Assembly: GCA_964445745.1 (NCBI GenBank)
Contig: CAYULU010000001.1
Span: forward strand, 35,873-99,872
Direction: 5' to 3'
Length of the DNA stretch: 64,000 nucleotides
Source of the DNA: an uncultured bacterium
Lineage (GTDB): Bacteria; Omnitrophota; Omnitrophia; Omnitrophales; Aquincolibacteriaceae
In this document: in pieces, positions 12,001 through 54,395 of the stretch
How positions within the stretch are numbered: position 1 is the first letter of the stretch
Layout: each line of letters opens with the position of its first letter
Program-made: the position numbers and the translations under genes
The notes under the pieces: generated by a model
The model's input: the letters and a program-made list of their open reading frames with translations, nothing else
The model's database searches: none
What the model was told of the DNA's origin: nothing

Positions 12001-15000
12001 AACGGCGCATTCCAAAATATGGCTTTGATAAAGCGAAAGACGCTGCCGAAAAACCGGCCGCGATTGCTGCTGCTTTAACTGCTGCGCAGGCCGAAAGGAC
12101 CCGTCTCGCAGCGGTACTTGCGGCTGCGGAGGCTGCGCAACAGCCGCCGCCGGCGCAACGGTCCGAGGTTCGCTCAATCGAGGAAATTAGGGCCGCGATC
12201 GCTGCCCAAGACAGACGGATCAAAGAGCTCGAGGCTAAGCAACAAGTATTTGCCGGTCTTCCTGCCGCTGAACAGGAGAAGCTGAAAGCCGACGAAAAGG
12301 CTTGGGATAAGCATCAGACTCTTTCACGGTTCCGTCTGGATCTACTTGCCGCGCTCATGTTCTCGATGCGTGTATTCCTCGTGCTTTGGATTGCCGCGGC
12401 TCTGACACCTTACTTGGGTCTTACCTGGGCTTTTGCTTTACCCCTTGCATTCACGCTCGTATTTCTGAAGATCTATGGCTGGTTGTACAAGAATCTTAGC
12501 TATGTGGGGATCTCAGTCTTGAGTGCGACGATCAAAACCCTCGTGTTCACGCTTGTTGTCATTGTTCCGATTACGGGGGTACTCGTATCATTGACCCCGT
12601 GGGTTACTTTGGGGGGATTTTTTGGCGGAGCCTTGGGAATCGCTACGATTCTTTGGACGACGGTTCTTCTTCAGCCGGGGTTATTGGTGATGGGCCTTAT
12701 GTGGGGCGTCATGCTGGTTCTTATGACGAAGTGGGCGGATCCTCAGTCATCGCTGATCGTGGTGGATATGAAGGACGAGGTTCGCGAGCAGTTTAAAAAG
12801 GATTTTGCTGAAGAAGAGGCGCAGAGGGTTCTTAGGGATTTACGTGAGCTGCGTGATTGGCTTCAGGCTGCCGAGAAGAAAGCTGAAAAGGACAAAGTGA
12901 CAGTCGCAACAGCTTTGGGGACGGGGAAGGGGAGTCTGAAGGAAAAGATACAGGCGAGGATCGCGGAACTCAGGAACAGTCTTGTTGTGAAAAACGGGAA
13001 TACTTATATCCGGATGCCGGACGGCAGCCTGTATTTTAAAGAAGGCGAGATGGCCGTTGTGAAAGGTGTTACGCTTCATGCCGGGGGCACTCAGGAAATG
13101 GACGAGGTCGTCTATTCCTTCGCCGAGAGCTTGATCCAGAATAACATTGAACAAGCCAGGTTTGCCTTGGGGATCAACGGTGGAAGCATCACCAAATACA
13201 TGAAATTGAAGGACCGCTATGAAAAGAAAGAAATAACAAAAGAAGATTACGAAAAAGAGCTTAAGACGTACAAGGTCGGGAGTTTGACCATTGAAGAGTA
13301 TGTGCGTGGACTGAGAAAACGTCTTGAGGTTTACGCTCTTGTGATCCCTGACGTGCAAAGAAGGTTGCAGATCTTTTTGGAGCCGGGGTGCAGAAAGCCG
13401 TTTCCGAACGTTCTGAAGTGGGGTGCGTTTACGATGTACGGGGAAGACGGCTCCAAACGGAACGCGGAAAATACAAAAGGCGGGTCCATGGGACAGGTCT
13501 CCTCAAAGGGCATAAATTTTGTGACGACGTTTAACATCTTCGGACGTAGGATCCTGCTCGGTATGACTCCCGCGGTGATCGAGGCCTGGCTTGCGGAGAA
13601 TGGCGGTGCAAAACCCGGTGATCTCAGGATCCCTCTGGCGGCCGCTAACGAGCCTTTCTTTGCGGGAGTTATTAAAATACCGCCTCAGGATATCGATGGC
13701 TGGATTGCTGAGGTCGATGCTTCTTCCAAAAAGCCCCAGACGATAGACGAAATGGTCATTCCTCTCGAAGAGACCCGTAAGGATGAGAATCTGATGGGTC
13801 AGTATTATCCTCAGTTGGATGAACAGGGGAATCTCGTACCGAGAGTTAAACATTCGACAACGGTAGATGGAGGGAATTATGTTAGCAATGGTTCCATTCT
13901 GACGGTATCCCAGGCCCTTGCGGACCGTCCTGATGTCGGAGGGCTGCAAATGGATACCGGCTATCATACTGAGGATGGGACTTCGATGGATTGGGTACAG
14001 CGCCGGTTTGCCCATCATTCCGGGTTCTGGACAATTCGTTTTAATGCGGCCGTGGCGGGTTTTGAGCGGTTCTTCGGGAAGTACACGCTTGTAACTCGAT
14101 GGGCGGGCGAAATGTCGCGTCCGACCGCCGGGATGCCCTGGGGTGCTTATTACACAAGGACCGTTATTCTTTCAGGTTTTATTCTGAATGCCATACGCCG
14201 GGCTCTCAGTGAAGGCGGCGGGTCTTATAAATTTGTGGCTGGTGTTGGGGATCTTGCGATAGTTAAGGATGGCGAACATAAGGGCGAGCTTGCCATTAAA
14301 GAGGCACTGAAACATACTGCTCGAAAGGCAGTTAATGATATCGTGATCGCAAAACTTCCCACGGGCGTTACTCTGGACAATGCCACAGATGCCCAGTTGG
14401 TGGAGGCGCTGAATAAAACCCTAGAGAATCCGGGACTCTATGAAAAGGCGAAACCTCTTTTGGACAATGCCGGAATTTCCAGAGCGGAAGCTATGGCGAA
14501 AAAAGGAAAAGATGCTGTTGCGCAACTTGGCTTGCGAAATCGTGCCATTCTCCAGGCGATATACGGCGAAGAAATACAAAATCAAACGGAATTATCTTCA
14601 ACCCTTGATCAAAAAGGGCTGAACGGCTATGCGGAAGGTTTTCCCGATGCGGTGAACGGGATCATCGCGAAAATGAACGGCGAGGATGAGATCGTCACGA
14701 ATACGCCCTCGGATAACTATGTCATCCACGATTATGTTCGCAGACATTATGACAGGATCAAGGCCTACAAGAGCATGCCGGAGGGACCTGCTAAGGGATG
14801 GTACTGGATGTGGAATCTCGGACGAGGACCAAAACTACCGATTGGGTGGTTGATCGCGAAGTTGTTCCGTGTATCGGAGCTTTCCGAGCGTTATTTGATT
14901 TTATCGCGTCTTTGGATAATCCATCTCCCGTCGTTGCATCAGCCGGCGCCGTTCGGAAAAGATTTTATGGATACGACCGGGATGGAATATTTTGACAAAA

Positions 15001-18000
15001 TGCGGGAAGAAATGAAGACGGAGCCGGTTCTTTTGCAGGGGATGAATGCCGCGCTGGTCGTGAGGGCCGACGAGGTTTCCGGGATCATCGACGATACTCA
15101 GGAAAATTACAAAAAAGAAGAATTCCAGGTTAAGAAATCGAGCGAATCGAATGACGAGCCGACGGAGTGGGCGAGGGAAGCCGGCATTTTTGCACTGACC
15201 AAACCGACGGATTTTTTCAACATTTTCCCGAGAGAGGGTGCCGTTGCGAATAAACAGTGGCTCAAGTCGCTTCTCCTCTCCTGGGCGTTGGTGTTTGTGC
15301 CGGCCCTCTTCATTATTACAGCGACCCATCTTGCGGTGCTGCAGATGCTCGTGGTGTTGAGTGTTCTGGTGCTTGCATTTTTGTGGGGGGCATTTTCGAA
15401 ATCGATAGCTGTGACTATGGTTAATTTCAGGAATGATGTTCAACGGATGAGAAACGGCGAAATTCGAAAAGGTTTTGGTTTGTTGGTATGGCACTATATA
15501 CAGATGCATCTTTGGCTTGTAAAGGATGTCCTGATGTGGTGTTCCGAAAAGGTTTTTTCGACGCTGAAGTACATGGCCCGTGTTTTAAATCTTTGGGACT
15601 TTTTCTGGGGTCAGCCAGGACGCATCGGGGTTTTTGATCGGGATCGCAAGGCGCCTCCCGCGCCCCCGGCATTAGGAGCTTTGGCAACTCCTTCCGCGAC
15701 CCAGTATGCCGTCGAGCCAAACGCACGGCGGGGTATTACGTTCGGAGTTGCGCTTTTGGGGATGCTGACGCTCGCAAAAGCTTTCGCAGTTACCGAGATT
15801 TTGGCCGGACTTGGGTTTGCGGTTATTGGGATTGCTGTCGCATCGTGGATGCTGTGGACTTTTCTTTCAGATCCGGATTCAATCGGGAATGTAGCGGGTA
15901 AAGCCCTCGGTGAAGTTGTAAAAGATAACGAGGCCCTTGGGTGGGTGAAGGGAATTCTTGCGGGCGTAAACACTGCCGATGATGCTGTTGCTGCTTTTAA
16001 AAAGGTTGGTGTGCTGAAACGAGTACATGTGATCTGGACCGTGGGATGGAAATCACGCGGGCGAATAAAAGAGATGGTTAAAGCCGAGGAAGAGTTGGCC
16101 GCGAAAGTAGGGCGCGCGGCATTTTTTCCTCGCGCGGCATTTCCGTTTGTGGATTTCATCCGGCTGTCGAATCATCTTTTTATTCCGTTGTTGTTCCTAG
16201 GTGTCGTGGGACTTCTCATGCCGGTTTTTGCGATTAATGTCCCGATATCCCTTATCATCTTAACGTTGCCTTTGACCATTCCATGGGTTTTTGGTCCGTT
16301 TGGCCAATTTGTCGGTGGTTATATTTTTAATCGTAAGGGAGAGCATAACGGCAAGTGGAGGGCCCAAGCGTGGAGTATTGGGCTTGGGGCCGCTTTCCTT
16401 GGAATGGGCATTGCAGTTCATAAATTGACCCTGATGCAGAATGTTTTCGGGGCGATTTTGGAGCTCATAATACACGCGCCGATCACCGCAGCCATCTCCG
16501 GGATGGTCGAGGGTGGGGTTGGTCCCTTCATGGGCGTCTTATCGGGTTTGTCGCCATATATGATGTGGGTGCAGTCCTTTATCGTGGGCGGCATGGTATT
16601 GCTTGTCATTGTCGGTATGGTGTGGGCTCTTATATATTGGAATCAGGTAAGAAAAGAAAAGAAAGCCGCGGACCAAAAAGCTGCAGCTAAGAAAGCCGCG
16701 GATGATGCTACCGCGGCGGCTGCCGCTGCTGCGAAATCTGCCGCGGGGACGCCAGCTGGGAACGGAACGTCGGGGACGACGAGTGGTACGTCGACAGCGA
16801 CCACGCCTACGCAAGCACCTGCGGACACTTCGGATAAGGCACTGGCGGGAACTGAAAAGCCAGATGTGCATGCAACCGATGTGCCTGGAACCACTGAAGT
16901 GACGCCGCCTTCGGATCAGGCTCAGGTTGAAGTGCCAGCGACCGAGCAAAAACCCGCTGTTGAGCAAACACAACCAACGGAACAAAAAGAATCCGCTGCT
17001 GACACGGCGGCATCTGCAATTCCCGAAAAATCAGGGTCCTTATTGACTGAGGAACAAGAAGCTGCACTTCGGATGGTTGCGGCCAATTATGCCAAAGTGC
17101 CCTACATTGCGAAATACGTGCGAATGGCTCTGCTTTATTTTGGGCGTTCCACGGACTCCAAATTTAAAGAAGTCGAATCGGCGTATGTAGCGGCGAAACC
17201 GAATGGAGAGGGATTTCCAAAGACAGAATTTAGCTCAATTGAGGGAAATGCTTCGTTAAAAAAGCTTGCTAAAACCGCAGTCATCCAGGTTTTGAGTTTG
17301 GATGGTGGTTTGGGCGAAAAATTGCGTCGTTCCCTTTGGAAATCCTGGTTGCTAATGAAAGGGTTCTTGAACAGGGAAGGACTGGAAATCGATTCCGAGG
17401 GCAACCCCAGGCTTGGTGCGAAGGGCACCGATATGGGGTATTTTGTGAAGCTCCCGGATGGCAGGATCGTCTATGTCAGCGTCTCAGAATCCAAATTGAT
17501 TAATCTTTACAGACAAGGACAACAGTCCCGTTTTAGCGGATTGAGCTTTCGTGCTATTGTTAACGCAGCATCCCGACCTTCCTATGAGGCTCTGTTTGAA
17601 AAGCCCAATCTTCTGGGAATTATCGCAGAGGGTAGCACAGTCCCGATGACGTATAGGGAACTGCTTGCATCCGTGAATGTAAAGGTCGATGACTTTCTTT
17701 TTCAAGACAAGGTCCCGGGCCTTCGGGTATGGGTAGATAAGACGGGGAAGGAAGTATTCCTTCCGTCTGTGTCGGATGCTGGCTATAGCCAGGAAGGAGG
17801 CCATGGTCAGATTGGCGTGTTGACGGTTATTAATCCTGAAGATTATGTCCCCCGGACGGATGGAGCGCCTGATTTTGTGGCTTTTACGAATGGGGATGGA
17901 CAGGTCTCTTCCGACATTTCGCCGGAGATTATCGGGGACATGATTCAACGCGGCAGAGCGATCGGTAATCTTGTGACGGCGGCGACTCGCGTGGATCGGA

Positions 18001-20492: not shown

Positions 20493-23400
20493 ATGCAAAA
20501 TGACCCGATGTTCGTGCCCGGTTTCTCGTGGAAGCGAAGTAAGTCGATAGTTGCGTTTGTCACGCTTGTCGCTTTTACCGTGACGACCCTTGTCTGGGAC
20601 CCCAGGGCATTCGCGGGGACGGGTGTGCCCGTGGCCGGTGAAGTTTCGGCCTTTGCACAAGGGGTTTTGCAGATTCCGGCTGAATTGGGTCAGGTGACCG
20701 AGACTTTGGTGGGGGATCCAAAGGCCCCTGCCTTCATTCATATCCAGTCCGCGCACGGGAACTATTCTGCGGAAAAGAATATCGAGAAACTTCTCGGATT
20801 TATCGAAAAGAATTCTTCTGTAAAACTGATGCTTCTTGAAGGGGCTTCCGGGAAGCTACATCCTAAAATGTTTCGCATGTTCCCCGCGCATCCGGAATTC
20901 AATCAAAAGGTCACGGACAAACTGGTGCGGGAAGGGTATCTCACCGGGCCGGAATCTTTTTTGATCGGGTCGGATGACAAAACAGAGGGATGGGGGATCG
21001 AGGACCTTGAAGCTTACAAAAAGGATCGTGAGTCGTTTATCCATGTCGTGGAGAAAGAAAAGGTTGCTGAGAAGTTCCTGGGTTCTTTGCGGGCCACGAT
21101 CGACAGACGTTTTTCATCGAAACTTAATAAAGACCTCCTGAACCTCGTCCGTCAGGAAGAAGCGTTTGGGTCGGGAACGGTTTCGTTTGAGGGCTGGCTT
21201 ACTGTCCTTAAAGCCGCGAGCCAAAAACATCTTACCCTTGACCTTTCGGATGCCTTTTATCAGAACCAGTATCCCTTTCTCATCCGCTATTTCCGCTTAC
21301 AGGCTATCGGTTCCAAGATCGACCGTGAAAAAGCGCGGCACGAAGCCGATGCTTTTCTCGTCGATCTTGCCAGTCGCAAGGTTTCTGAGGAAGTCCTCGA
21401 GAACTTCAAAGCCATCCTGCAAACATCCGAAACAGAGCTTTTGAGAACGGTCAGCCGTACCACGGATGGCTATTCCACGTTACGTCGGGCTTTCGACCTC
21501 GCTTTTAGCAGTCTCCCCAAAGATTTTTCCATGACGCAGTGGCCAAACTGGACCCTGTATGCCCAACACATCATCCTGATGCAGGAGATGGAAGGCAAAG
21601 GGCTTCATGAAGAGACCTTGAAGCTGAAGGACAAGATTCAGACAGCTTTAGCCAAGACCGCGGATGAAAAAGCATATCTCTCTCAGGCTCGGGAGCTGTA
21701 TTTATTGCGCCGTCTTTTTAACCTTGAACTAACGCGGCCGGAATATGAGGAGCTGGCGCAAACCGTTAAAACGTCCGACACTCAAGAGATTCAAACGCTC
21801 TATAAAACCGCCATGGATTTCTACTCGACCGCTGTTGAGCGTGAAAACAAGATGTTCCAAAATGCCCTTACGAAAATGGCCGGGACGAAGCAACAGCACG
21901 CTGTGATCGTCACAGGAGGATTCCACGCCGAAGGTCTCAAGAAACTCGTCACATCCAAAGGCTGTTCCTACATTCAGATCACGCCGCGCATTGCAGAAGT
22001 CTCGAAGCGTGACCATGAAGTGTATCTTCGCTCGATTCTCGGTTCCCGCGACGTTGAAACTTCCCAGATGAGCGCATTGCTTGGGATCGTCGATCGCGCG
22101 CAGCGTGTCGCCGTGACTGGCGTTGCTGCGACCAAAGACTGGGCTCGCGATGTCCGCAGTCTTGTTTTAGGTCTGATCAATTCTGAAAATGTCTCTGCCC
22201 GTCAGGCTCTTTCAGTGTCCTTTTCTAATTCTATTTTTGGTTCCCAAACACCTGCCTTGGTGCCTGTCATTGCTCGCGCTGAGGTGAGGGAAAAACAAGC
22301 TGCTACTAAAGTAGTTGCTGTAGACTCGCAGATCAATAGCATTGCCCAGAAATTGACGTTGGCGGCAGCGCTAGCTTTTACATCCGTTTCTGCCCATGCT
22401 GATTCAGTTGGAGTGCTTTCTTCGTTCTCCAGCGAACAGTCTGTTTCAGTATGGTTCTGGGGTAGCGTACTTTCCCTTGGAGCTCTTTTTGCTGGTTACT
22501 TTATCGTTTGGCGTCTCTTTTTTCCGATTAACTGGCACCTTCGGCGGCTTCTTAGTAATGAATATGCTGTTAGGAGCCGTGCGATTGAGAAACTTGTTAG
22601 CATAGGGTCTAAGGCCGTTCCCGCACTGATCAGAATTTTAGAAGATAAAACTAATATATCCAGTTCAAATGTTATAGAAATACTTGAAAGAATTAAAGAT
22701 GCTCGGTCCATTCCAGGATTGATTGTCGGACTGGGTGACAAATCTGAAGAAATACGTTTTCGCTCGGCTAGAGCGCTCGCGGAATTTGCTGATGCGCGAA
22801 TAGTTCCAACGTTGCGAAAAACTGCTGATGGTTGGTTGCAAGATCTTAGAAAACAGCGAGGTGAACTTGAGGAGACGCTTAAACAGACTCCCTCCACGAT
22901 TGAGCAAGAGGAAACTAGACAAGAGGAGCTTGTGGAATTGGGTGGCCGTGGGGACAGAGGAGGTGTTTATACAATAGGATATGAAATTGTCCCAACGGGG
23001 AGAATGGAAACTGTATCGAATTCTGCATATACGGATCTTTCTTGGAGAATTAGCCGTTTGGAAGTTGTGGAGCGAGAGATTGCATCCTTCTTGCTAAGAG
23101 CCGAAGAAGTAAACCATGTTCGCTCCGAAGTCCGCCTGACGCCCGCGCAGGAAAAGCAATTTCAGAAAGCTCTCCGCGATCTTCAGCCCAAGTGGTGGGA
23201 TGGACTGTTGGGTGAAATTGACGGGAATGAACGTAAAAAGCGTGCCTTAAAAACTCTTGGCGAACTCAAGGACTCCCGTTCGTTTAGGGTGCTGAAAGAA
23301 AAAATTTTGTTGCATCAAGAAGAGCCGAATTTTCCTTCTCAGCAGGCGGTCAAGTCCATGAAAGAATTTCCAACAGATATGCTACTTTCGGGGTTGATGC

Positions 23401-40767: not shown

Positions 40768-40964
40768 TTCCAGTTTAACCTGTTTTCATGGAAGGTTAAG
40801 TCCCGATTATGCAGTCAGAAGCTGGGGCATGCGGCACGTACTTCATATTGCCATGCCCTTTTTAGAGAAGGAAGGAATGTTCTTTCCGGTGAAACCCGTA
40901 AAGGCCTCGAGCGGTTTTATCGGACATCAAAATCGAGGCGACATAATGGAAGGGAAGGATACAT

Positions 40965-43733: not shown

Positions 43734-46700
43734 ATGAGCGATAAAACTATCAAAAACAAGAGTGTTCAATTTCGGGTTACTGCCCTTGCGGTCTTGGTCT
43801 GTTTTATAACCACGAGCGTATCGTTACCTGTGTCCGCAGATGCTTCGTCCGCAGGTCCTGCTGTTCCAACCCTTTTGCCCTTTGCTGAGTTGACCATTCC
43901 AGATGAGTTGGGAACCATGACGAAAGCGGTTGGAGCTCAAAGTGTGGCGGCGGGTGATCCGGGAAAAACCAGTGTCCAGGATTCTTCTCAACGAACCGTT
44001 ATCCTGATTCAAGATGCCCATGCCGTGAATGATGCCCAGAATAAAATTCAACAAATAATCGCGCATCTGCAGACCCATCATTATGCCGACGTGCTCCTTG
44101 TGGAAGGGGCGCAAGGTCGTTTAGACCCCACGATACTCCGGAATTATCCCGATAAAAATGTAAAACAGAGAGTCATCAACGAATATCTCGAGCGAGCAGA
44201 GCTTGCCGGTGTGGAATCTGCCGCTGTATTAAATGACACGCTTGGCCGTTTCGAAGGAGCGGAAGACTGGGCCCTTTATTCGGAAAACTTCGATGCCTAT
44301 CAGCGAGCGCAGGCGGAAAAAGAAAGTCTCCTGGACGTCCTGTCGGGTTATGAGCATAAGCTCGAAATGGAAAATACCGGTCGAATTAATTCGAGGCTGG
44401 AGGATTTTCTGAAACAGTGGACAGGGTTTCGATCCGGCTCTGTTTCCTTTCATGACATGCTTATTTCCCTGCAGGAGTTTTCAAGTCTGGCGAAAGAGGG
44501 GGATGGTTTCTCAGAGCTCAAAAGAATCCTGGATGCACTGGGTTATGAGAAATCAAGCCAACCGACTGCGCTCGAACCTGCGGTGAAAAAAATGGCCGCC
44601 GAATTCAAACAGAAATTTGCGAACGTGATGGATGTCCGTGACCAGGCGAACTTTTACATGAACTATCAGAAATTCCTGACGGGGCAGTTGGGAGCAGGTG
44701 AAATGCTGAGTCATCTTCTTCGTCTGGGACGGAAGTTGGGGAAGGAACCCAGGCTCAGTCCGGAAATGCGTCGTCTTCTGGGGCACACGCAGACTTTGGC
44801 CGCGATCAAGGGCAACAGACTTTTTGAGGAGCTGAACCGGTTTCTTGTGATGGTCGCCATGAGCCTCGCCCAAAACTCCGACGATGTAAGCACGGTCGAG
44901 CGATATGAAAAATTGTTCATTCTTGAAGATCTTGTAAAACTGGAGTTGACCCATCACTCGATATCCTCATTAATGAAATCTGGAGCGCACAGTACGAAAG
45001 TCGAAACGAGTTCCCGTGCCCCTGATTTACAGGCCCCCGACAAAATCAAAGTCCTGAATTTGGATGATTTTGATTTGGGATTTCTTTCAGATTTCGGATT
45101 GAGCGTTTCGGATTTTGAAAAAAGACTGCAACCGGCCATTGATTTTTACCGGGCCGCCTTGGAACGTGACCGGGTGTTCTATGAGCGGATTAAAGCAGTG
45201 CCCGAAAGCGATCGTACGATTGTCCTGATTGCCGGAGGCTTTCATACCAGCGGGATCGAACGACTGCTTCGTGAGAATCAGGACTCGTATGCGGTTGTGA
45301 CTCCCAGAATCGAATCCCTCAAAGGATCGGAAAATTATTTTCGCGTCATGAATAACGATTTTTCCTACCAGAAATATCTTGGCACTACCTACTATGATGG
45401 ATTGATCCGTCATGCGATTCGCAAATTGACGGAAGGCCTCGGTGAGGCTGAGCTCCGGCAAACAGCCAAGCGTTGGCGCGATAATCTTATCCGGGACCTT
45501 GCCTCGCAAAACAGGATCACGGACTTCGGGCAATATAGCCACTATCTTGATGATTTAAATCAGGTTTATGCTGAACGTTTTGCCAAAGATCTTAAACCTC
45601 TTACCAAGGAAGATATCCTGGAGGTGATTAAAAAGGAGTTAGAGAAGTTTAAATCAGATGTGCTGGTTTCACTGCGGAGGCAAGTCGAAGGTGATCTGCA
45701 AAGTACCACGGCCGGGATTCAGGGTCTGGAGGATCAAAAAGAATCTTCCGGCACAAAGCCTTCGGATCTTGCGCTTGATATTCCCGTTTCCAAGCCATCG
45801 ATGTTGAGCGCGGCTCTAGCGCTTGCTCCCAGGGTTCCGATATTAAAACTGCCTCTCAGTGAAGTCCGCCAGCCGACGGTAGTGGCCAGCGATATTCCTG
45901 AAGCCTTGAGGGAACCTGTGTCGCTAGAGGCCAGCGGCATTGAGATCGGGCCGGGGGTAGGAGAAGAAGGTTCAGGGCGGAGTGAGACCCGGGTTAATGA
46001 TGCGGTGAAAGAGAAAATTGAAAGCATTCGTGCCGGATTGCATCAGTTACTGCGCTGGCTTGTTGCAAAAATGGCGGTCGGCCCGTGGCGGGAAAAGATG
46101 CTCGGGTTTTTACTTGAAAGCGACCATGTGAAAATTCTGATCGACGACGGGAAAAAACATCAGCTTAAGCGATACGTCGCGAAATACGAGCCGAAGACCG
46201 GGCGCGTATATTTGTCTCAGGTGTTTCCGGGACATTATTCAAAAGAGAGCCTTTTAAGCCATCTCCCCGGGGCTGCTCAGCCGGAGATCTATAAAGGGAA
46301 AGGGGTGGAATTAATTTTGGGGGATGATGGTCGACCGTATCTATCAGTTAAATTTGATCAACCGGTGCTAATTGTTGATAGCGATCAGAAAATCCTTCAG
46401 TCAGAAAACATCAAGCCTCTTCTGGTGCCGCTTCCTAAAGTGAGCGAGACAATTGCTTTTCTCAAGAAAACGGTGCCGGGTTTCAGCCGTTGGCAGAAGG
46501 CGCGTGTGAAGGCACTGGAACAGCAAAAACTCGAAGCAGCGAGATTATGGTTTAATGCAGGCCGTTTTATGGCAAGAGAGTCCAAGGCCTTTGATAAGGA
46601 TGGGGATGTCGATACACTGGAATACGGATCCAGCCGATTTGAGGTCGGCATATCGGATTCCGGGGAGGAAATTGTTGTTAGGGTATTTAATCGTGATACG

Positions 46701-49700
46701 GGAATACTGGACGGGATTCTTTTCTACCCGTTTTTGGTTGGTGCCTGGTTCACGGCAGGTCAAGGATACGCGAATGAGATCCCGGTTTTGGATCCTGGTC
46801 TTCCGCCGATGGCTCTGAGATTTAGCTTGGGAGACAAGGGGGTTTATGTTTCCTCGGTTGCGGAGATTTCTGTCTACTTGCAGGCGGATGGTGTTCGTTC
46901 TGAGGAGTTAATACCGAGTTTCGAAGAAGCTGTGGCCAAGAATCCTGATTACCCCGGTGTTCTCCTTCCTCACACTGCCGGGAAAATCGAAAAACTAAAG
47001 TTGTTTCCGTTGGAACAGTCTCCGGACATGATAGGTCCTCCCTTTCATGTCAATCCTGAGGGCCCAAATGCCCCTTATATTCTTCGGGCGAGAGCTGAGG
47101 TTCGGAGTGAGGATGGGCGCCGGCCCGCTGGGATGATATCCAATGTTCGTAAGATTCTCATGGCCGGCATCTTATCTATTGCGATGATGAGTTCTGCGAT
47201 TGCGATGTCACCCCGAAGTTTTGGAGCCTTTCAAGGCGGACTTCAGACCCTTGGTTGGTATACAGGAAAAGTTGACCGAAAGGATGGACCCCGGACACAG
47301 TCGGCTGTCAGGACGCTCCAGACCATACTTCGTGATGAATTGGGGTTTACAGGGATTCGTGTTAACGGGCGCTATGACGATCCAGCGACACTGGCGGCAG
47401 TTAAAGAACTCCAGCGAAAGTTTCAGGAGCTCTGGACTGCGAAATATCGGGGCGGAGTGGACGGAGTTTTAGGCCCAGCAACGGCGCCTTTTTTTAAGCG
47501 GTACCTGGAACTTCTCAGAAAAGGGAGAGAGGCCCAAGGGCTTGTCGGTCAGGGTTTGTCAGATTCTGTGGTTTTGCCGTCCTATTTTCTATCGGATCCG
47601 GCCACCGAAGTTCTGAATAACCCAACCTTGCAGGCAGGTTTCTCTGGCTTGGGTTTTCAGGTGATTCAGCGGTTACTGGTATCTCGGCAACTTGTTCCGA
47701 AAACGCAAGAAACCAGGAATTTTATCTACACCTATCTGTATGAGACCCATCAGATAGTTCAGACGGCTAAACAAACGCTGACGGACTCCGAGTTTCAACG
47801 TGTTTTTCATTCAAAAAAATCTGAAATGACTCTGGAGCGGGTGGCCCAACTCGCGATGTTCGTTTTTGATCTGAATAATCACGAGAGCATGGGACATGTC
47901 CATATCAAAAACAAACGAGGCAGCGATTTTTCTCAAGCGCAAATCGTGATAGGGACTCGAAAAGAACTTTTTCAAAAAAACTTGTTTAAAAAAATAGCGG
48001 GAGTTACAGAGACTCAGCCTGCGACATCGAAGGAGTGGGAAGAATTTCTCGTAACTGGTTCTTCCGCGAACCGAAACCGCATTGCGATGGTGATTATTCA
48101 TTTTTTAAGAGCTCCCCGAGGCTTGTCTTTTGAGAAATTGTTCCCGATAGATACTGTGGAAGGATCGAAAATTTGGGGGAAATATTACCAAACCCAGTCG
48201 CTTGAAAAAGCGATGAGGAATTTCAGCGAAAGGGCTAAACGTTTTAGAGATGATTGGGGCCAAGTGACACAATATTATTTGTCACACCAGCGCTCGGAGG
48301 TGAGGGCTGAGGGAAGCTTGCCTGATGATGTTCGTGATTCGATGTTGCCGGAAAAATTACCGAATGTTGTGATACTGTCCCCGGTTTTTAATGAGCGGGA
48401 TAAGCTTCCGGAGGTTTTGGAAAATATTAAACAGCAGAAATATTTAAAGAATGTGATTTTTGTTGATGATGGTTCAAGTGACACGACGGCGACGTTTCTG
48501 CGGGATTCGGGTGTTTATTTTATTTCTTTTGCCAAAAACGCACAGAAAGAAGGCGCTCTTTTGAATGCGCTGGAAATCTTGCAGAATCGCTATGGGTTGC
48601 CCGATTATTTTGTGGCGATAGACGGAGATTCTTATTTTGGCGGAGAGAACATCCTCGCTGTTCTGAAGAAAGCGATTAAGGAGATGGAAAAGGGGGGCAA
48701 TGTGGCCCGCCCGATTGATATTGAAGCTCATTTGACCGCCCGTTCCGGGGCTCTCGAATGGCTCCAGGGGATCCACTGGTATTTAACGATGGGGATCCGC
48801 ACGATCTATTCAAAAATTTCTTTTTTCCCTCCGAGTTTGTTGGGCGGAGGAAATATTTTTAAAACCCAGGTCTTTTTGGATGCCGTTGCGAAAAGAAAGG
48901 CCGGTTTCGAAGCAGGGGATGTGGAATTAAACGGGATTATTAGTTCGATGGGGAAAGTGGCGAAACCCCTTTCGACCGTCAGGGTCAGAACCGAAGTTTT
49001 TAAGAAATGGAATGACTTTTTTAAGCAACAAAGAAGGTGGGCTCGTGCCCAGCTCGAAGGAACTCCAAACTGGTTTTTTGCTGTTTTTCTGTCAGGCCTT
49101 GTTTTATTTGACGCGTTCATTTTATGGAATCTCCCGGCATTTCTGGCCCTGACGGCGGTGTTAGCGGTTGCGTCTGTTTTTTCGGTCATGTTGCGTTACG
49201 GGGTTATGCAGTTCCAGAAGTTTGCTAGCGCGGGTTCGAAACGAAATTTGCCTGAACAACAATCGATTCGTGTCCGGTTTTGGCGTGATGTTGTGTTGTT
49301 ATCGCCGTTACTTGCTCTTTATGAAACTGTCAATATGTTTACCATGTTCAACGTGGCAACCTTCCAACAATTGCAGGCTCCCAAAAGTATTCCTCCGTGG
49401 ACCGATACGACTGCTACACGCTCCGAGATTCGTAGCGATGAGATTGATCCTAATCCTAATGATTATGGTTTAAGGAGGGGGAGACTGAGCCGGGATTCAG
49501 AAATAATGCTGGGGTCTCTTGCGGATTATCTTTCCAGAAACCAGATAGCCAGAGATGACGCGAACCTGATAGCTCGGACACTAGTTCGTATGAAACCTCT
49601 GTCTCTGGAACTACTCCGTGATTGGGGAGTCCTCACAGCGGAAGAAACCAGGCTGGTCGCCGCCGGGGATATTGGCAAAATCATGATTTCTCAGGATATG

Positions 49701-52700
49701 AGTAATTCCCTTGCCCAAAGAATGCGGCGTCTTCTGGAATCTTATGATCAACGAGAATTTTATGATCAACGACGCTACACCAGGGCACAAAAGGATGTTC
49801 TCTTGTCGCGGCTTATTCCCGTTGACCAGATCGATGCAATTTTGGCCCGAAGTCCGGACCTTAATGACGGCGTTGTGATTGAGATGCTGGACAGCCGCTT
49901 TTCTCTGATTCTTCAAATGGATCGCGCCATTGAAATTGCGGCAAGTCTGCGAGAGTTGGGCATTGTTTCTAGTCTGGCCTGGAGAATTTTGATCAAGCAG
50001 GGGACTGATCGGGCATTGTCTTGGGCCTCTGACGCACAGGCGGTCGTTGAAAGAATTAAGGACGCTCAAGGAGTGAACGGACAAAGAAATGCCTGGCTGA
50101 TGATTATGAATCACGGCATTGAAAAAGTGGAAGAAGCTGAACGTCGAGGGACACTTCCTAAATTGATGAACGCGTGGGACACACGCTCCGAGCTTCGCGA
50201 CAATGACATCCCCGAAGGGCTGAAAGAGGAGATTCAGAGGGCTTATGGCAGGGCTGGCGGGCCGGAGATTTTTGCAGAACATTTATCCATGGAAAATATT
50301 ATCCATCAGGTTCTGGAAGATTTTGGCAAAGACAACAACGTGAAGCTGGTAGAAGGAAAGGATTTTGAGCTTTTTTGGTACCGGCAGCGTTTTGGAATTA
50401 TCATGAAAAATGCCGAATCTAACAAATATAACACGGACGAGGTCAAAGCCGAAATTATTGAGCGACTTAAATCTTATTACCATAAGTATAAGCCCAAAAT
50501 AAATGTAAACGTTGAGCCTCTTGATGATGGAGTTGAAGTATCTTACCGGATCACTCCGGCCTCGCTGACGGAATTCGGAAAGTTTTTCGGAACGGCAGAT
50601 ATTCAATATTATGATGAAGGTCACAGATTCCCGAGGCCTTTTACCCCCGAAGAAATACGGGAGAAATTTGTCCATAAGGCGGAAATGTTCTTGAGAGGAA
50701 TGGAACTTTATGAGCTACCACCTGATGCAATCGAAAAATTCAAGAAGTGGGCATTGGGTGTTGTTGCCTCTGCACTTGCCAATTCGGACCGGTATGGACG
50801 GAAGGAGATTATCCGGACGGAGTCGATCAAGCGTAGTGTTCGTGAAAGACATGAGGACGGATACAGGTATACGACCTTGAATGCCATGAGGAAAAATGCT
50901 GAGGGAAGTGTTCTGTTTGATTTCTTGCTTCGTGAGTTACGTCGCCGCGAAAATGCCAAACGAGTTGTCTATCTAGCTCGCGGTGCGGGGAGCTTGAAGA
51001 AAGTCGCACGGTATGCGAATTGGTTGTTTTCTCCCGAAATTGTGCAGGGGGCTCGTGAGAATTTTCTTTTTATGCTTTCGCAGGATACCGAATGGGATGT
51101 TATTCGTGACATTAAAGATCTATTCCGATTTTCTCCTGAGACATACCTCCCGGGGGAAGGGGGCGATCCTGATGAGTTTGTGGAAAGCGTTTCCTATGAT
51201 GTCTTGGAAAGACAAGCGATGGAAATTCTTGAGGATTTAGACAATGGGAAGAGTCGTTTGATGCACGGACCAGGACTGGGTGCGCGGGAAATTAAACCTC
51301 ACGGCGAGGATGGAAAAGGCCCTAATCGATTTGCTCAGTTTTTTGACAGAATCTATGACTGGGTCAAGGAGGCAGGGATTGTGGACGGTCTTCAACCTGG
51401 GGAGACTATCCTGGTCGTGGATGAGTCTTCCAGCGGGACTTACCCCTGGATTTTGAAATATGTAATTGAAACACGATACCGCGCTGAGTTGGCAAAACGG
51501 TTGGGAAAACCTGTATCGGAGATCAAGCTCCAGGTTATTTTTTGGGCGGGCGGTCGATCGAATAATGACTATGGAATCGTAGGTTTTCCTATGTTTTACC
51601 CCAATGACTATAAGAAAACTTTTGGGTTCGGAGATTTTGCCAGCCACGCAATTAGCGTTGCAGGAGAAAATATGCCGCATCCGGTAAAGGTTGGTCGGTA
51701 CAGCAAGGGGGATGCGGATGAAGGGGAGTATGAGGTGGAAGAAACTGATGTGCTTTTGGGGGCTTACCTGAATTCGATGTTTATCTACAATGAAGTGGTG
51801 AAATTTTATAGCGAGCTGAATGGTATTGTGCTCAAAAAGGACAAAACCGAACAAGAGTGGAATCTGGTTTTGCATTACCTGGCACTTAAACTGCCCCCAG
51901 AGGTAGAGGTCACCCCTGCGGCGCTCGCCCGTGCGTCCGGATTTGCCTTAACGGCAGATGATATCCAGAAGGAACTGTCTCGCTCTGAAACGAGGGGGTC
52001 TGTTCCTTTGAAGGACGGGTTTGAGAAATTCGTTGAACGGGTGGATGTGATCCGAAGAGAATGGGACACTTCTGTAAAGAAAGCAGATGAAGGAAAACAA
52101 GGGGCTAAAGAATCATTCGCATCGGAAGCTGTCGTGAGTCTGGGCGCTTTAAAGAGTGGTCATCTTTGTCTGGTGCGAGGCAATTTTGACAAGCTGACTC
52201 AGGGTCTTCGTACCGCTCTGGATGCGGTCCGGGATGAATTTCCGGTATTTAAATCAGGGGATGAAACTGACCCATTATCGGGCGAGCTCAAAATGCTTAC
52301 TGAGCTTGTTCGCAATATCTCGCAACATGTCCAGAGTAAGGAAGGGATTGTGGCGATCCAGTTCGATAAGGAAGCCAAACGGTTGTATGTGGCAGCGATT
52401 GATCGAGGCGCCGGTTTTTCCTTCCGGACGCAAGGTGCTGAAGAAGCGTCTGGCATTGCAATTCGTGATGCGGGGCATTTTGTACAAAGTGGAATTAATC
52501 GTGTTGGCGAAGGAATTGGAATGAGAGCTGTTGTCCGGCAATGCGAACACGTTTTAATACGCAGTGGCGATAAAGAATGGTCTGATGAAGATCTTAAGTC
52601 GCAAGGGGTAATTCCGGGAGTTGAGCGAAAGGATGGTCTGCCGGGCTCTCTTGTTTCGGTGAGTGTTAATCTTGAGGAATCCATGCAGATCATTAATAAC

Positions 52701-54395
52701 GCGATAAAAATACGTATGATCGATAAAAAGTTAAAGGATCTTGCGAATGCGGTCGGCAACTTCTCGCGTTTTTCAGATCTTCGGTGGGAGTTTGCTTCTG
52801 AAATTCCCTGGCCTGAATTAGTAAGAGTTACGTCGCCGGAAGAACAATATCGTCCTCGAAATGGTGTGGACAGAACTTATGGCACACAAGAAAACCGCTG
52901 GAATTATTGGTCCAATCAAATTGACGTCCGTTATGCTTTCTTGCATCTGATCGGTAATGCCCTGGAGCAGAAGCGGCCTCTGACAATTAAAGAGGTTGAA
53001 AAATATCTACGGACAGCTCACCACCGATTAATTTTCGGGGTGAATGATCAATCGCCCTATTATTCTCCGACGTTGCTTAGCATGGGATTTCCTAATCCTG
53101 AGGTAGCTTTGAGAGCGGGCACTGGTAAACTTTACTTGACTAAAGAAGGCATTACCGGTTACACGCAAAAGCTCAACGTTCTTCTGGAGCGTTTAGCGCG
53201 GCCCAAGTTGACCGTTGAGGATATTATTCAGCCTCTCTTTGATCTTCATCGAGCTATCATTGTCCCGGAAGTGCCTCGAGAATCCAAAGGGGCCTTTGCC
53301 TTTCCATTCGCGAATAATTCATTTTCGATGAATCAAATCAATGCCGTAAGGCGTTTGCTGGGGCACGCCGGAATTTCTCACGACGGGATCGATTTTGCGT
53401 TGCTTCAGAACAGAAAGGATGTTACTCGCGCCTTAAAATATTTCACAGCTCTGATGCGCGGGGAATCGTACCCCTCCGATGAGAATGCCTTTGCCCCCAC
53501 AGTGGCAGGCTCAGCGCAGGCGCCTTCAGATGTTCGCCGCGCTGAGATCCGCGAATCTCCGGGATTTGAGCCTCTTGAACTGGAAGGGGAGTTGGAAGGT
53601 CAGTTGAAAGATCGGGGGTTTGCGCTTTTGGCGGAGCTTGAAAAACGGCCGGAGCTGAGGGATTATGTCCTAGGCTCGGAATTTGAAGAATTGGTCAAAA
53701 AACTGTTGGGAATCTTTGGGGATGTGGCAGTGTTTGTGAAGGGTGTCCGAGAGGCGATGATTCCTAAGATTTTGGCGGCTGAAACAGTGGATCTGGAACT
53801 TGCGAGTATCTTGCCGGATGCGATGTCAGCTTTGACAGCCACGTTGAAACAGGTTAAAGGAAATGTGACCATTGCCGTGGGTGATATGCTGGATGTCATG
53901 GATCAGTTTATAGAAATTCCAAGCGAGTATACAAGTCAGGTCAATGAAATTGGCGTGACGGGAATGTTGCACCCTAAGGTCCGGACTCTTTTGCGGGAAA
54001 GAGGCGTTACCATCCGATCCGTCAAGCCAAAGTGGAATTTTATTTCCCGAAATCAAAGCCAGGTACCTTATGTGACCGATACGAATTCCCTGGTTGAAAT
54101 GCTTGCCGGTGTTTTTGACCCGATTCTGGCGGATCAGGTCGAAACTGGGGATGTTTCGGTACAGCGCTATCGGGACCGATTTTTGATTGTGGCGGCGATC
54201 CATCTTGCTGATATCAGGAGAATCGGAAAGGCGATGAGCCAATCCGAGATACTGGACGAACTTTTGCGACGTCTCAACTTGAAGGAGCAGGAAGCGATGA
54301 TTGAGATCCGGGGAGGGAGGTTTGTCGTCTCCAGCACGGCGATCCAGCTTTACCTCAAGATGCAAGCTGAAAAATCCATCCAAAGGGCCGCTTAA
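43734..54395 (+). CDS. Giant multidomain membrane protein (about 3550 aa). Signal anchor plus TraB/GumN-like N-domain (paralogous to giant protein 2), a PG-binding domain, a processive GT2 glycosyltransferase with TM helices, and a GHKL-ATPase-like domain.
   Basis: 10.7 kb ORF. Track start is TTG at 43671; I prefer the ATG at 43734 (MSDKTIKNK plus hydrophobic helix plus SADA). PG_binding_1 LQTLGWYTGKVDRKDGPRTQSAVRTLQ. GT2 VILSPVFNERD...VIFVDDGSSDT...AIDGDS...FKQQRRWARAQ. GHKL ELVRNISQH...AAIDRGAGF...GEGIGM. Confidence 0.9.
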   Translation: MSDKTIKNKSVQFRVTALAVLVCFITTSVSLPVSADASSAGPAVPTLLPFAELTIPDELGTMTKAVGAQSVAAGDPGKTSVQDSSQRTVILIQDAHAVNDAQNKIQQIIAHLQTHHYADVLLVEGAQGRLDPTILRNYPDKNVKQRVINEYLERAELAGVESAAVLNDTLGRFEGAEDWALYSENFDAYQRAQAEKESLLDVLSGYEHKLEMENTGRINSRLEDFLKQWTGFRSGSVSFHDMLISLQEFSSLAKEGDGFSELKRILDALGYEKSSQPTALEPAVKKMAAEFKQKFANVMDVRDQANFYMNYQKFLTGQLGAGEMLSHLLRLGRKLGKEPRLSPEMRRLLGHTQTLAAIKGNRLFEELNRFLVMVAMSLAQNSDDVSTVERYEKLFILEDLVKLELTHHSISSLMKSGAHSTKVETSSRAPDLQAPDKIKVLNLDDFDLGFLSDFGLSVSDFEKRLQPAIDFYRAALERDRVFYERIKAVPESDRTIVLIAGGFHTSGIERLLRENQDSYAVVTPRIESLKGSENYFRVMNNDFSYQKYLGTTYYDGLIRHAIRKLTEGLGEAELRQTAKRWRDNLIRDLASQNRITDFGQYSHYLDDLNQVYAERFAKDLKPLTKEDILEVIKKELEKFKSDVLVSLRRQVEGDLQSTTAGIQGLEDQKESSGTKPSDLALDIPVSKPSMLSAALALAPRVPILKLPLSEVRQPTVVASDIPEALREPVSLEASGIEIGPGVGEEGSGRSETRVNDAVKEKIESIRAGLHQLLRWLVAKMAVGPWREKMLGFLLESDHVKILIDDGKKHQLKRYVAKYEPKTGRVYLSQVFPGHYSKESLLSHLPGAAQPEIYKGKGVELILGDDGRPYLSVKFDQPVLIVDSDQKILQSENIKPLLVPLPKVSETIAFLKKTVPGFSRWQKARVKALEQQKLEAARLWFNAGRFMARESKAFDKDGDVDTLEYGSSRFEVGISDSGEEIVVRVFNRDTGILDGILFYPFLVGAWFTAGQGYANEIPVLDPGLPPMALRFSLGDKGVYVSSVAEISVYLQADGVRSEELIPSFEEAVAKNPDYPGVLLPHTAGKIEKLKLFPLEQSPDMIGPPFHVNPEGPNAPYILRARAEVRSEDGRRPAGMISNVRKILMAGILSIAMMSSAIAMSPRSFGAFQGGLQTLGWYTGKVDRKDGPRTQSAVRTLQTILRDELGFTGIRVNGRYDDPATLAAVKELQRKFQELWTAKYRGGVDGVLGPATAPFFKRYLELLRKGREAQGLVGQGLSDSVVLPSYFLSDPATEVLNNPTLQAGFSGLGFQVIQRLLVSRQLVPKTQETRNFIYTYLYETHQIVQTAKQTLTDSEFQRVFHSKKSEMTLERVAQLAMFVFDLNNHESMGHVHIKNKRGSDFSQAQIVIGTRKELFQKNLFKKIAGVTETQPATSKEWEEFLVTGSSANRNRIAMVIIHFLRAPRGLSFEKLFPIDTVEGSKIWGKYYQTQSLEKAMRNFSERAKRFRDDWGQVTQYYLSHQRSEVRAEGSLPDDVRDSMLPEKLPNVVILSPVFNERDKLPEVLENIKQQKYLKNVIFVDDGSSDTTATFLRDSGVYFISFAKNAQKEGALLNALEILQNRYGLPDYFVAIDGDSYFGGENILAVLKKAIKEMEKGGNVARPIDIEAHLTARSGALEWLQGIHWYLTMGIRTIYSKISFFPPSLLGGGNIFKTQVFLDAVAKRKAGFEAGDVELNGIISSMGKVAKPLSTVRVRTEVFKKWNDFFKQQRRWARAQLEGTPNWFFAVFLSGLVLFDAFILWNLPAFLALTAVLAVASVFSVMLRYGVMQFQKFASAGSKRNLPEQQSIRVRFWRDVVLLSPLLALYETVNMFTMFNVATFQQLQAPKSIPPWTDTTATRSEIRSDEIDPNPNDYGLRRGRLSRDSEIMLGSLADYLSRNQIARDDANLIARTLVRMKPLSLELLRDWGVLTAEETRLVAAGDIGKIMISQDMSNSLAQRMRRLLESYDQREFYDQRRYTRAQKDVLLSRLIPVDQIDAILARSPDLNDGVVIEMLDSRFSLILQMDRAIEIAASLRELGIVSSLAWRILIKQGTDRALSWASDAQAVVERIKDAQGVNGQRNAWLMIMNHGIEKVEEAERRGTLPKLMNAWDTRSELRDNDIPEGLKEEIQRAYGRAGGPEIFAEHLSMENIIHQVLEDFGKDNNVKLVEGKDFELFWYRQRFGIIMKNAESNKYNTDEVKAEIIERLKSYYHKYKPKINVNVEPLDDGVEVSYRITPASLTEFGKFFGTADIQYYDEGHRFPRPFTPEEIREKFVHKAEMFLRGMELYELPPDAIEKFKKWALGVVASALANSDRYGRKEIIRTESIKRSVRERHEDGYRYTTLNAMRKNAEGSVLFDFLLRELRRRENAKRVVYLARGAGSLKKVARYANWLFSPEIVQGARENFLFMLSQDTEWDVIRDIKDLFRFSPETYLPGEGGDPDEFVESVSYDVLERQAMEILEDLDNGKSRLMHGPGLGAREIKPHGEDGKGPNRFAQFFDRIYDWVKEAGIVDGLQPGETILVVDESSSGTYPWILKYVIETRYRAELAKRLGKPVSEIKLQVIFWAGGRSNNDYGIVGFPMFYPNDYKKTFGFGDFASHAISVAGENMPHPVKVGRYSKGDADEGEYEVEETDVLLGAYLNSMFIYNEVVKFYSELNGIVLKKDKTEQEWNLVLHYLALKLPPEVEVTPAALARASGFALTADDIQKELSRSETRGSVPLKDGFEKFVERVDVIRREWDTSVKKADEGKQGAKESFASEAVVSLGALKSGHLCLVRGNFDKLTQGLRTALDAVRDEFPVFKSGDETDPLSGELKMLTELVRNISQHVQSKEGIVAIQFDKEAKRLYVAAIDRGAGFSFRTQGAEEASGIAIRDAGHFVQSGINRVGEGIGMRAVVRQCEHVLIRSGDKEWSDEDLKSQGVIPGVERKDGLPGSLVSVSVNLEESMQIINNAIKIRMIDKKLKDLANAVGNFSRFSDLRWEFASEIPWPELVRVTSPEEQYRPRNGVDRTYGTQENRWNYWSNQIDVRYAFLHLIGNALEQKRPLTIKEVEKYLRTAHHRLIFGVNDQSPYYSPTLLSMGFPNPEVALRAGTGKLYLTKEGITGYTQKLNVLLERLARPKLTVEDIIQPLFDLHRAIIVPEVPRESKGAFAFPFANNSFSMNQINAVRRLLGHAGISHDGIDFALLQNRKDVTRALKYFTALMRGESYPSDENAFAPTVAGSAQAPSDVRRAEIRESPGFEPLELEGELEGQLKDRGFALLAELEKRPELRDYVLGSEFEELVKKLLGIFGDVAVFVKGVREAMIPKILAAETVDLELASILPDAMSALTATLKQVKGNVTIAVGDMLDVMDQFIEIPSEYTSQVNEIGVTGMLHPKVRTLLRERGVTIRSVKPKWNFISRNQSQVPYVTDTNSLVEMLAGVFDPILADQVETGDVSVQRYRDRFLIVAAIHLADIRRIGKAMSQSEILDELLRRLNLKEQEAMIEIRGGRFVVSSTAIQLYLKMQAEKSIQRAA

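Follow-up and report, generated by a model that had tools for sequence, protein, structure and literature searches.

A recurrent R-[S/A]-E-x-R pentapeptide at module starts of giant Omnitrophota proteins, a probable delimiter and candidate processing site

Introduction

Where might the giant proteins of the Omnitrophota be divided into working parts? Giant and very long proteins characterize this phylum. The searchable text of two papers on them describes chains of >10,000–30,000 residues, suspects cleavage and proposes C39 or S8 peptidase domains for it (10.1101/2023.11.21.568195; 10.64898/2026.06.07.730766). In the searchable text of the first, the cleavage points are said to be unknown, which has blocked structure prediction and interpretation (10.1101/2023.11.21.568195). 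The 64-kb stretch analysed here (the window; positions 35,873 to 99,872 of contig CAYULU010000001.1, assembly GCA_964445745.1) comes from an uncultured Omnitrophota bacterium. It holds three long open reading frames (ORFs), P1, P2 and P3, which lie in one common reading frame and carry a recurrent pentapeptide, R-S-E-x-R. We conclude that this peptide, in the wider form R-[S/A]-E-x-R, is very probably a selected recognition or delimiter motif, and that its likeliest role is as a site of proteolytic processing. The three ORFs are:

3..19943, plus strand: P1, the C-terminal 6,646 residues of an ORF that extends past the left window edge
20493..29633, plus strand: P2, 3,046 residues, comprising signal peptide, TIKI-like N-domain, cargo modules and C-domain
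43734..54395, plus strand: P3, 3,553 residues from ATG 43734; the mechanical ORF begins at TTG 43671

The ATG at 43734 is probably the start of P3; the database copy, P0240, has 3,553 residues. P2 also has an identical database entry, P0001, carried by an NCBI contig of 104.6 kb.

Pentapeptide sites in P1, P2 and P3

The three proteins hold 16 exact RSExR sites (two in P1, nine in P2 and five in P3) and four RAExR sites. The first-pass annotation of this DNA had reported at least 12 exact copies and listed 13 positions. All 13 hold the motif in the giant-ORF frame, one of them shifted by a base (25977–25991, not 25978–25992), and to these are added RSExR at 25299–25313, 29601–29615 and 50184–50198 and RAExR at 19899, 22275, 47091 and 53538. 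The residues given for position 4 (V, T, S or I) all occur there, together with L, A and M. The description of a peptide punctuating all three giants suits P2 and P3; P1 is sparse, with three R[SA]ExR sites in 6,646 residues and none within the first 4,000. The sites are as follows, with residue numbers for the start of the motif.

12159..12173, plus strand: RSEVR, P1 residue 4053; RSEAR in the L013 homologue, flanks diverged
19005..19019, plus strand: RSEIR, P1 residue 6335; junction to a C-terminal domain of ~310 residues
19899..19913, plus strand: RAEMR, P1 residue 6633; QSAME in the L015 homologue
22275..22289, plus strand: RAEVR, P2 residue 595; first delimiter, immediately past the N-domain, with a signal-peptide-like segment next
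23121..23135, plus strand: RSEVR, P2 residue 877; start of a HEAT/ARM module, where BLAST alignments to P0014, P0006 and P0032 begin
25299..25313, plus strand: RSEVR, P2 residue 1603; start of a DUF218 module
25977..25991, plus strand: RSETR, P2 residue 1829; start of transmembrane (TM)-hairpin module 1 (residues 1829–1947)
26334..26348, plus strand: RSESR, P2 residue 1948; start of a cupin-type GPI module
27234..27248, plus strand: RSESR, P2 residue 2248; start of TM-hairpin module 2 (residues 2248–2375)
27618..27632, plus strand: RSEVR, P2 residue 2376; start of a HEAT-like module, hydrophobic segments on both sides
28761..28775, plus strand: RSESR, P2 residue 2757; opens a tandem pair within the linker that leads to the C-domain
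28818..28832, plus strand: RSEMR, P2 residue 2776; C-domain junction, predicted disordered
29601..29615, plus strand: RSEAR, P2 residue 3037; inside the C-terminal helix of an AlphaFold2 (AF2) model; AAQSK or ATQSR in homologues
45978..45992, plus strand: RSETR, P3 residue 770; first delimiter past the N-domain
47091..47105, plus strand: RAEVR, P3 residue 1141; next come a signal-peptide-like segment and a PG_binding domain
48291..48305, plus strand: RSEVR, P3 residue 1541; start of a GT2 module
49419..49433, plus strand: RSEIR, P3 residue 1917
50184..50198, plus strand: RSELR, P3 residue 2172
51981..51995, plus strand: RSETR, P3 residue 2771
53538..53552, plus strand: RAEIR, P3 residue 3290; C-terminal domain junction

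Two of these are probably chance instances: RAEMR at 19899, which is unconserved in the homologue, and RSEAR at 29601, which is likewise unconserved and sits within a modelled helix.

Enrichment of the motif

RSExR occurs 16 times in P1–P3 against a mean of 0.27 and a maximum of three in 2,000 residue shuffles, in agreement with the earlier estimate that well under one chance occurrence is to be expected. None was found in the 6,013 residues of the window's 14 other ORFs. A six-frame count gives 16 RSExR in the giants' common frame and 0–1 in the other frames. The motif is written with six arginine codons (CGC, CGG, CGA, CGT, AGA and AGG), four serine codons (TCC, TCT, TCG and AGT) and both GAA and GAG for glutamate. 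It is therefore the peptide that is under selection, as the first-pass annotation had argued.

The same enrichment extends to 80 related loci. ORFs of <700 residues contain 0.038 RSExR per 1,000 residues (4 in 104,319), and those of at least 1,500 residues contain 1.6 (378 in 235,498), so that large ORFs are ~40-fold denser than ordinary ORFs of the same contigs. This settles the question, raised with the original observation, of whether ordinary proteins carry the peptide as often. A search with P2 found 111 large proteins, those with named sources being from Candidatus Omnitrophota except one from Endomicrobium sp., and among these homologues RSExR is the commonest pentamer (437 in 370,059 residues), as befits the suggested signature of a protein family. 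De novo pattern discovery returned RSE.R or a close R-x-E-x-R variant as the top pattern in most of 91 independent cluster representatives (members of at least 1,500 residues). The 91 hold 468 motif occurrences in 335 thousand residues, and 66 of them have at least three R[SAP]ExR sites.

That the recurrence is an artefact of composition, of a duplicated linker or of the R-[STN]-E-[LV]-R catalytic strand of PL7 alginate lyases is hardly credible. P2 does have one duplicated module pair (residues 1829–1947 and 2248–2375), and in the literature PL7 lyases carry RSELR or RSEVR; indeed, a full-text literature search for RSEVR or RSExR returned PL7 papers only. In PL7 the same pentapeptide, R-[S/T/N]-E-[L/V]-R, is a β-strand inside a jelly-roll with conserved partners, whereas here it is isolated in disordered linkers between unconserved flanks, and a Pfam search found no lyase domain in P1–P3. 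Mutual BLAST of P1–P3 at E 1e-3 returned only the match between the N-domains of P2 and P3. Since this search shows no internal repeats, the motif is not a by-product of duplicated linkers. The shuffles, the ordinary-ORF control at chance level, the dissimilar flanks, the varied codons, the Pfam result and the disorder at the sites together refute the artefact.

The duplicated pair in P2 consists of near-duplicate short modules at 25977–26333 and 27234–27617. Each runs from a delimiter through an amphipathic helix, QEKQFQKA[LT]RNFQ, a hairpin of two hydrophobic segments and an acidic linker to the next delimiter. The helix had been described as often following the motif; it is confined to this TM-hairpin type of module repeated in P2.

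Position of the motif relative to modules

A logo built over 563 sites shows a strict core. Arginine is obligatory at positions 1 and 5, with lysine excluded, and glutamate is obligatory at position 3, with aspartate excluded. Position 2 is S (78%) or A, and position 4 is V, L, A, M, I, T or S. In the flanks small residues are slightly favoured at −1 and +1, and information is near zero one to two residues outside the motif. A furin/kexin multibasic site (R-x-[K/R]-R, basic at P2 and P4) does not describe these sequences, with S or A at position 2, the obligatory glutamate at position 3 and the range of residues at position 4.

The proteins share an architecture of cleavable-looking signal peptide, N-domain of ~540 residues, first delimiter, unrelated modules (enzymes, HEAT repeats, TM hairpins), last delimiter and C-domain, in which each cargo module is preceded by a disordered linker and then a delimiter. 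Across the family the first motif lies at residues 550–770, immediately past the N-domain, and the median spacing between sites is 234 residues. In an all-against-all BLAST of cargo regions, 29% of alignments start within 3 residues of a motif (1.3% at random), only 1.8% end within 3 residues of one, and 23% span a motif where 50% would be expected. Alignments thus start at the motif and do not end there; hence the motif abuts the N-terminal edge of the next module, with a variable linker before it.

Individual cases agree. P2 alignments to other proteins begin at residues 877, 1602–1604 (BLAST matches to P0009, P0004 and P0053) and 2772–2776, all of them P2 motifs. Pfam domains fall between motifs, and the TIM barrel of P0038 begins 10 residues past RSEAR. 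The cargo recognized by Pfam comprises HEAT/ARM repeats, DUF218 (residues 1637–1753) and cupin-type GPI (PF06560, residues 2046–2180) in P2, and a PG_binding domain and GT2 (residues 1568–1672) in P3. The alignment starts and the placement of Pfam domains bear out the earlier impression that the motif sits at module boundaries.

The sites are also disordered. In an AF2 model of P2 residues 2716–3046, made with 10 homologues, the first 82 residues have predicted local distance difference test (pLDDT) scores of 32–37 and no secondary structure. RSESR 2757 and RSEMR 2776 lie inside this segment, and the fold of the C-terminal region begins near residue 2799. Disorder propensity is at its highest no more than 10 residues to either side of the motif.

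Segments resembling Sec signal peptides lie directly past P2 residue 595 (22290–22420) and P3 residue 1141 (47106–47200). Each has a basic n-region and a hydrophobic core and then AHA/DS or AIA/MS, and that of P3 precedes the peptidoglycan-binding domain.

Conservation and lineage-specific delimiters

Among homologues of the P2 C-domain, whose upstream cargo is unrelated, R[SA]ExR is found at or near the junction in 10 of 10. Eight have it in the aligned column (one degenerate, PSEVR) and the other two within ~25 residues. Homologues of P1 and P3 likewise retain the site that precedes the C-domain. RSEIR at P1 residue 6335 is identical in L015, where the sequence upstream is unalignable, that downstream is conserved and homology begins exactly at the motif. 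RAEIR at P3 residue 3290 matches RAEQR of P0241 (residue 2087), in an alignment that begins exactly at the motif and reaches the C-terminus. Conservation in homologues, the second check proposed with the first observation, thus holds at the junctions of all three proteins. P3 has too few homologues for its internal sites, and its conservation was assessed at the C-domain junction only. Its cargo (residues 620–3290) is near-orphan, with three partial homologues among 5.8 billion clustered proteins, its own copy being recorded there. Cargo turnover in the family seems to be extremely fast.

Family members without RSExR carry other peptides at the equivalent positions, including the first site past the N-domain:

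[AG]xSLG: P0030, P0039, P0040, P0041, P0047 and P0056
RPEAR or RPESR: P0055 and L031 (12 copies)
RAExR: P0111 (22 copies) and L040 (12 copies)
GARLA: P0090 (16 copies, the first at residue 595)
G[SA]RxA: L078 (11 copies)
DPLHAGE: P0086

Proteins differ from one another in their use of S, A or P at position 2 by far more than chance would give (chi-square 363; simulations average 81 and reach 142 at most), each being more uniform within itself, and divergent paralogues of one genome have the position-2 variant in common. Judged from the sequences, such uniformity is how sites co-evolving with a common recognition factor would be expected to behave.

These replacements bear on what the motif does. 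Modification had been among the roles suggested earlier, but a modification of the serine does not fit, since whole lineages have Ala or Pro in place of Ser. Modification of arginine is very unlikely too; here the motif would be a degron, for example phosphorylated by McsB and then acted on by ClpC–ClpP. Both arginines are strictly conserved, lysine is not accepted, and McsA and McsB are encoded in the window at 61134–62718. The sister-lineage delimiters GARLA and AASLG, however, have one arginine or none. We know of no sequence motif for McsB. The speculative link to that operon is not supported either: it lies 7 kb off, separated from P3 by housekeeping genes, and neither McsA nor McsB was found in 1.2 Mb of the 80 related loci, so that the linkage is not a conserved one.

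A co-translational or topogenic signal, handing the chain to a chaperone or insertase or pausing it so that folding and insertion proceed in segments, is improbable. Such a signal would account for the place of the motif at the N-terminal edge of modules and for TM-like segments, which are 3-fold enriched 10–40 residues downstream and depleted upstream, and two arginines would reinforce the positive-inside rule. A hydrophobic segment nevertheless follows only ~10% of the sites, and the replacement delimiters carry one charge (GARLA) or none (AASLG). To our knowledge, the motif is unlike any arrest peptide.

The protein family and its N-domain

P2 and P3 are members of a huge family of modular membrane proteins, and P1 probably belongs to it. 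The principal domains of P2 and P3 are:

20544..20600, plus strand: N-terminal hydrophobic segment of P2, then AFA/GTG; signal peptide or signal anchor by hydropathy and sequence reading
20616..22214, plus strand: N-domain of P2, predicted hydrolase of the TIKI/Ere/ChaN/TraB/RRSP fold
28887..29630, plus strand: C-terminal domain of P2, Rossmann-like α/β fold, ending ...MAASA
43881..45371, plus strand: N-domain of P3 (TIKI-like), 22% identical to that of P2; profile A1 match, E 4e-64

A profile search with the N-domain found 9,872 cluster representatives at 50% identity, 6,863 of them at E <= 1e-30. Among the 150 matches listed, which reach 7,462 residues, all except two have the N-domain at the N-terminus or close to it. 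When GTDB species genomes were scanned with a pattern from a 52-column sub-alignment of the N-domain, 516 copies were confirmed, mostly in Omnitrophota with a few in Elusimicrobia and several per genome. Similarity between homologues is confined to the first ~560 residues and, for the closer ones, the last ~270; the cargo between differs and includes TIM, PGI, enolase, PFK, glutamate dehydrogenase, PGM, histidine kinases, receivers and methyltransferases.

An alignment of 14 diverse N-domains has H52, E80, G81, E134, R414, G439, G440 and H442 invariant, with S, D, E, N or T at position 50. The AF2 model of the N-domain (mean pLDDT 77) has the TIKI α/β fold with a parallel β-sheet core, split by a helical insertion of ~290 residues. 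All structure matches listed belong to the TIKI/Ere superfamily: HopBA1 (table value 10.4), BcR135 (10.0), ChaN (9.4), a TraB family protein (9.3), BcR136 (9.0), EreC (9.0) and RRSP, the MARTX Ras/Rap1 endopeptidase (8.8). The helical insertion in the core and the fusion to thousands of cargo residues set the N-domain apart within that superfamily. The catalytic set of RRSP is E3900, H3902, E3930, R4001 and H4030, and BcR135 has H85/E113 (PMC6254334). The invariant H, E, R and H of the N-domain match RRSP and BcR135 in order and in spacings of ~28 residues, a correspondence by sequence order rather than superposition. From these structure matches and the matching residue order and spacing, the N-domain is a TIKI-fold hydrolase by its model and alignment, with an intact catalytic set and a predicted activity. 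In sequence searches, Pfam PF04187 gives E 3.5e-4 and 21 bits, under the 27.7-bit cut-off, and searches of PDB sequences with the N-domain gave no match.

The N-domain is universal in the family and also occurs alone beside giant genes. In 19 related loci the gene just upstream of the giant one, in divergent orientation, encodes a stand-alone paralogue of ~740 residues that has a signal peptide (~2.2 kb, minus strand, within L025–L049 and L063, for example L029:6038-8236; QDVHAH...ALEGAW...VTGGFHT). We rejected the idea that this neighbour is a different enzyme: it has no Pfam match, and it aligns as a stand-alone N-domain. To go by its sequence, this paralogue may be a form of the enzyme that acts in trans.

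The C-terminus is conserved as well. An [S/A/Q]-Ala-COOH end follows an amphipathic helix in 171 of 243 family proteins (P0001–P0243), and the window proteins end ...AIAKSA (P1, 19920–19940), ...RMAASA (P2, 29616–29630) and ...SIQRAA (P3, 54378–54392). This could be a signal for secretion, degradation or PDZ-type binding; it presumably resembles the HlyA end, which we take to be ...LTASA.

Cleavage, docking and the identity of the recognition factor

What would recognize such a motif? In the account that we favour, a site-specific endopeptidase would recognize the pentapeptide and mature the giant proteins as polyproteins, cutting at or next to the motif and freeing the modules. Its specificity would have co-evolved with the sites, hence RAExR, RPExR, [AG]xSLG and GARLA in other lineages. 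A protease site is suggested by the strict, isolated pentapeptide, the disorder around it, its placement at junctions, its conservation across differing cargo and its concerted replacement in lineages. The signal-peptide-like segments past some motifs would be natural, because new N-termini would arise there. Among the roles listed in the first-pass annotation, a proteolytic maturation site and a module-linker signature are the best readings. We infer both the cleavage and the agent that would perform it, and place the chance that the motif is cut at about half.

The N-terminal TIKI-like domain is the sole universally conserved catalytic candidate. TIKI1/2 and RRSP are sequence-specific endopeptidases, and other members of the TIKI/Ere superfamily are esterases. 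That the N-domain is itself the protease is a tentative assignment. The broader proposal is equally speculative, namely that a large share of the enzymes of Omnitrophota and some Elusimicrobia, glycolytic ones included, is made as membrane-targeted polyproteins that would be cut by their own TIKI-family endopeptidase, or its stand-alone paralogue, at lineage-specific pentapeptides.

Several observations weigh against these proposals. About a quarter of long family members lack a detectable recurrent motif, and some sites are in tandem or <20 residues apart and so delimit nothing. Every argument for cleavage equally supports specific recognition of another kind. TIKI-fold proteins include esterases and a haem binder. 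The N-domain should be periplasmic because it follows a signal peptide, and most of the P2 cargo and motifs would be cytoplasmic by simple hydropathy, so the N-domain may not reach the sites. The N-domains of P2 and P3, only 22% identical, share a motif, whereas that of P0039, 31% identical, goes with [AG]xSLG. Clustering of N-domains against delimiter class does not separate cis from trans specificity. Given the topology, the divergence of N-domains and the variants common to a whole genome, a separate factor acting in trans is equally possible.

Specific recognition without cleavage would make the motif a docking or assembly element, a ligand peptide at the start of each module bound, in cis or in trans, by a scaffold or receptor. 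The binder would be HEAT/ARM repeats or the N- or C-domain, and the chain would fold into an ordered multi-enzyme assembly or be recruited to one. This is the main rival, which we think possible, though not the readier explanation. A strict core of five residues, disorder, unconserved flanks and co-variation by lineage would be expected wherever a sequence is specifically recognized. HEAT/ARM repeats are frequent among the cargo, and ARM proteins are binders of extended basic peptides. Tandem and close sites would suit multivalent binding, and the alternate R, E and R would line one face of an extended strand. Many heavily punctuated members, however, lack any Pfam HEAT domain (P0013 has 19 sites, P0042 has 21 and P0037 has 16), and the unrelated GARLA and AASLG at the same positions are more like protease sites than charge-based docking. 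Moreover, the motif is always at the N-terminal edge of a module and not elsewhere in the linker, and signal-peptide-like segments past some motifs would make little sense in an uncut chain.

Comparison with known systems

By analogy, the closest functional counterparts of a processed family would be MARTX toxins and viral polyproteins. MARTX toxins of Vibrio and relatives are likewise very large, with conserved ends and variable, shuffled enzyme modules, and their unstructured linkers contain short processing sites at which a protease domain within the same chain cuts; one of their effectors, RRSP, has the fold of the N-domain. The present family has the same plan of conserved N- and C-domains around cargo that is unrelated between homologues. 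P1–P3 are nonetheless not MARTX members, because a Pfam search found neither RTX or glycine-rich repeats nor Peptidase_C80, the cysteine protease domain activated by inositol hexakisphosphate, in them. The MARTX CPD recognizes a single Leu. Here, by contrast, there is a strict pentapeptide, an N-terminal signal peptide, internal TM segments, largely housekeeping-type enzyme cargo and several paralogues per genome in uncultured nanobacteria, and cleavage is a proposal.

Viral polyproteins (cut by picornavirus 3C, flavivirus NS3 and coronavirus Mpro/PLpro) resemble the family in having a short junction motif that varies between lineages and co-varies within a genome, and small residues beside it. 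They differ in that the genes here are cellular and chromosomal and form a huge paralogous family, that the protease is a candidate, and that the motif is tightly tied to the N-terminal edge of the downstream module.

Closest in origin are the ‘Archaeovorins’ (West-Roberts et al. 2023, 10.1101/2023.11.21.568195) and the ‘multi-enzyme metabolic cluster’ proteins (10.64898/2026.06.07.730766) of the same phylum. The family shares their Omnitrophota origin and their repertoire of HEAT repeats, glycosyltransferases, glycolytic enzymes and many TM helices. Archaeovorins have genes of >90 kb and proteins of >30,000 residues, and the window proteins, at 3,046, 3,553 and at least 6,646 residues, are 5–10 times shorter than these giants. 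The searchable text of both papers makes no mention of the junction motif, the TIKI-like N-domain or the [S/A/Q]A C-terminus. The junction motif appears to have been undescribed before.

The delimiter gives the first candidate processing points for these giant proteins, and the question of their maturation becomes testable. A strict, scannable delimiter with its lineage equivalents is a rule for splitting modules in silico, and it names concrete peptides to seek; tryptic data are uninformative for cleavage after Arg. It also helps to define a new family by its TIKI-like N-domain, delimiter-separated cargo and [S/A/Q]A C-terminus, with ~10,000 cluster representatives. Were the motif cleaved, no known case of polyprotein processing in cellular organisms would be larger, and the family would supply new sequence-specific proteases. 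Were the N-domain the protease, it would be a bacterial gene-expression strategy at ~10^4 protein clusters, offering programmable protease/site pairs. A docking motif would instead reveal how multi-enzyme megaproteins are organized.

Other features of the window

P1 has ~11 hydrophobic segments in a hydropathy scan, no match in a Pfam search and, in L013, a homologue 53% identical over 1,984 residues. Its residues 1–4000 (window positions 3–12000) are empty in both the Pfam search and the delimiter scan and hold a single hydrophobic segment.

The neighbours of the giant genes are housekeeping genes, encoding NadE, ArgRS, MiaA, HflX, a Tal-PGI fusion, an amidase and transporters, together with a further aminoacyl-tRNA synthetase, an FtsX-family permease and ATPase (ABC transporter components) and McsA/McsB. 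McsA (with a UVR motif) and McsB (an ATP:guanido phosphotransferase) form the operon at 61134–62718. Between the amidase and an SNF-family transporter gene, the 1.4 kb at 40400–41850 have lower G+C (~0.46) and ORFs of at most 111 residues; tRNA and Rfam scans of the window, this segment included, gave no matches.

The Tal-PGI (transaldolase-PGI) fusion gene, encoding 958 residues, lies at 36586–39462, and the cupin-type GPI module lies inside P2 at 26628–27032. With a GPI module in P2 and a separate Tal-PGI gene, sugar-phosphate isomerase function may therefore be duplicated, once in an ordinary gene and once as a module of a giant protein.

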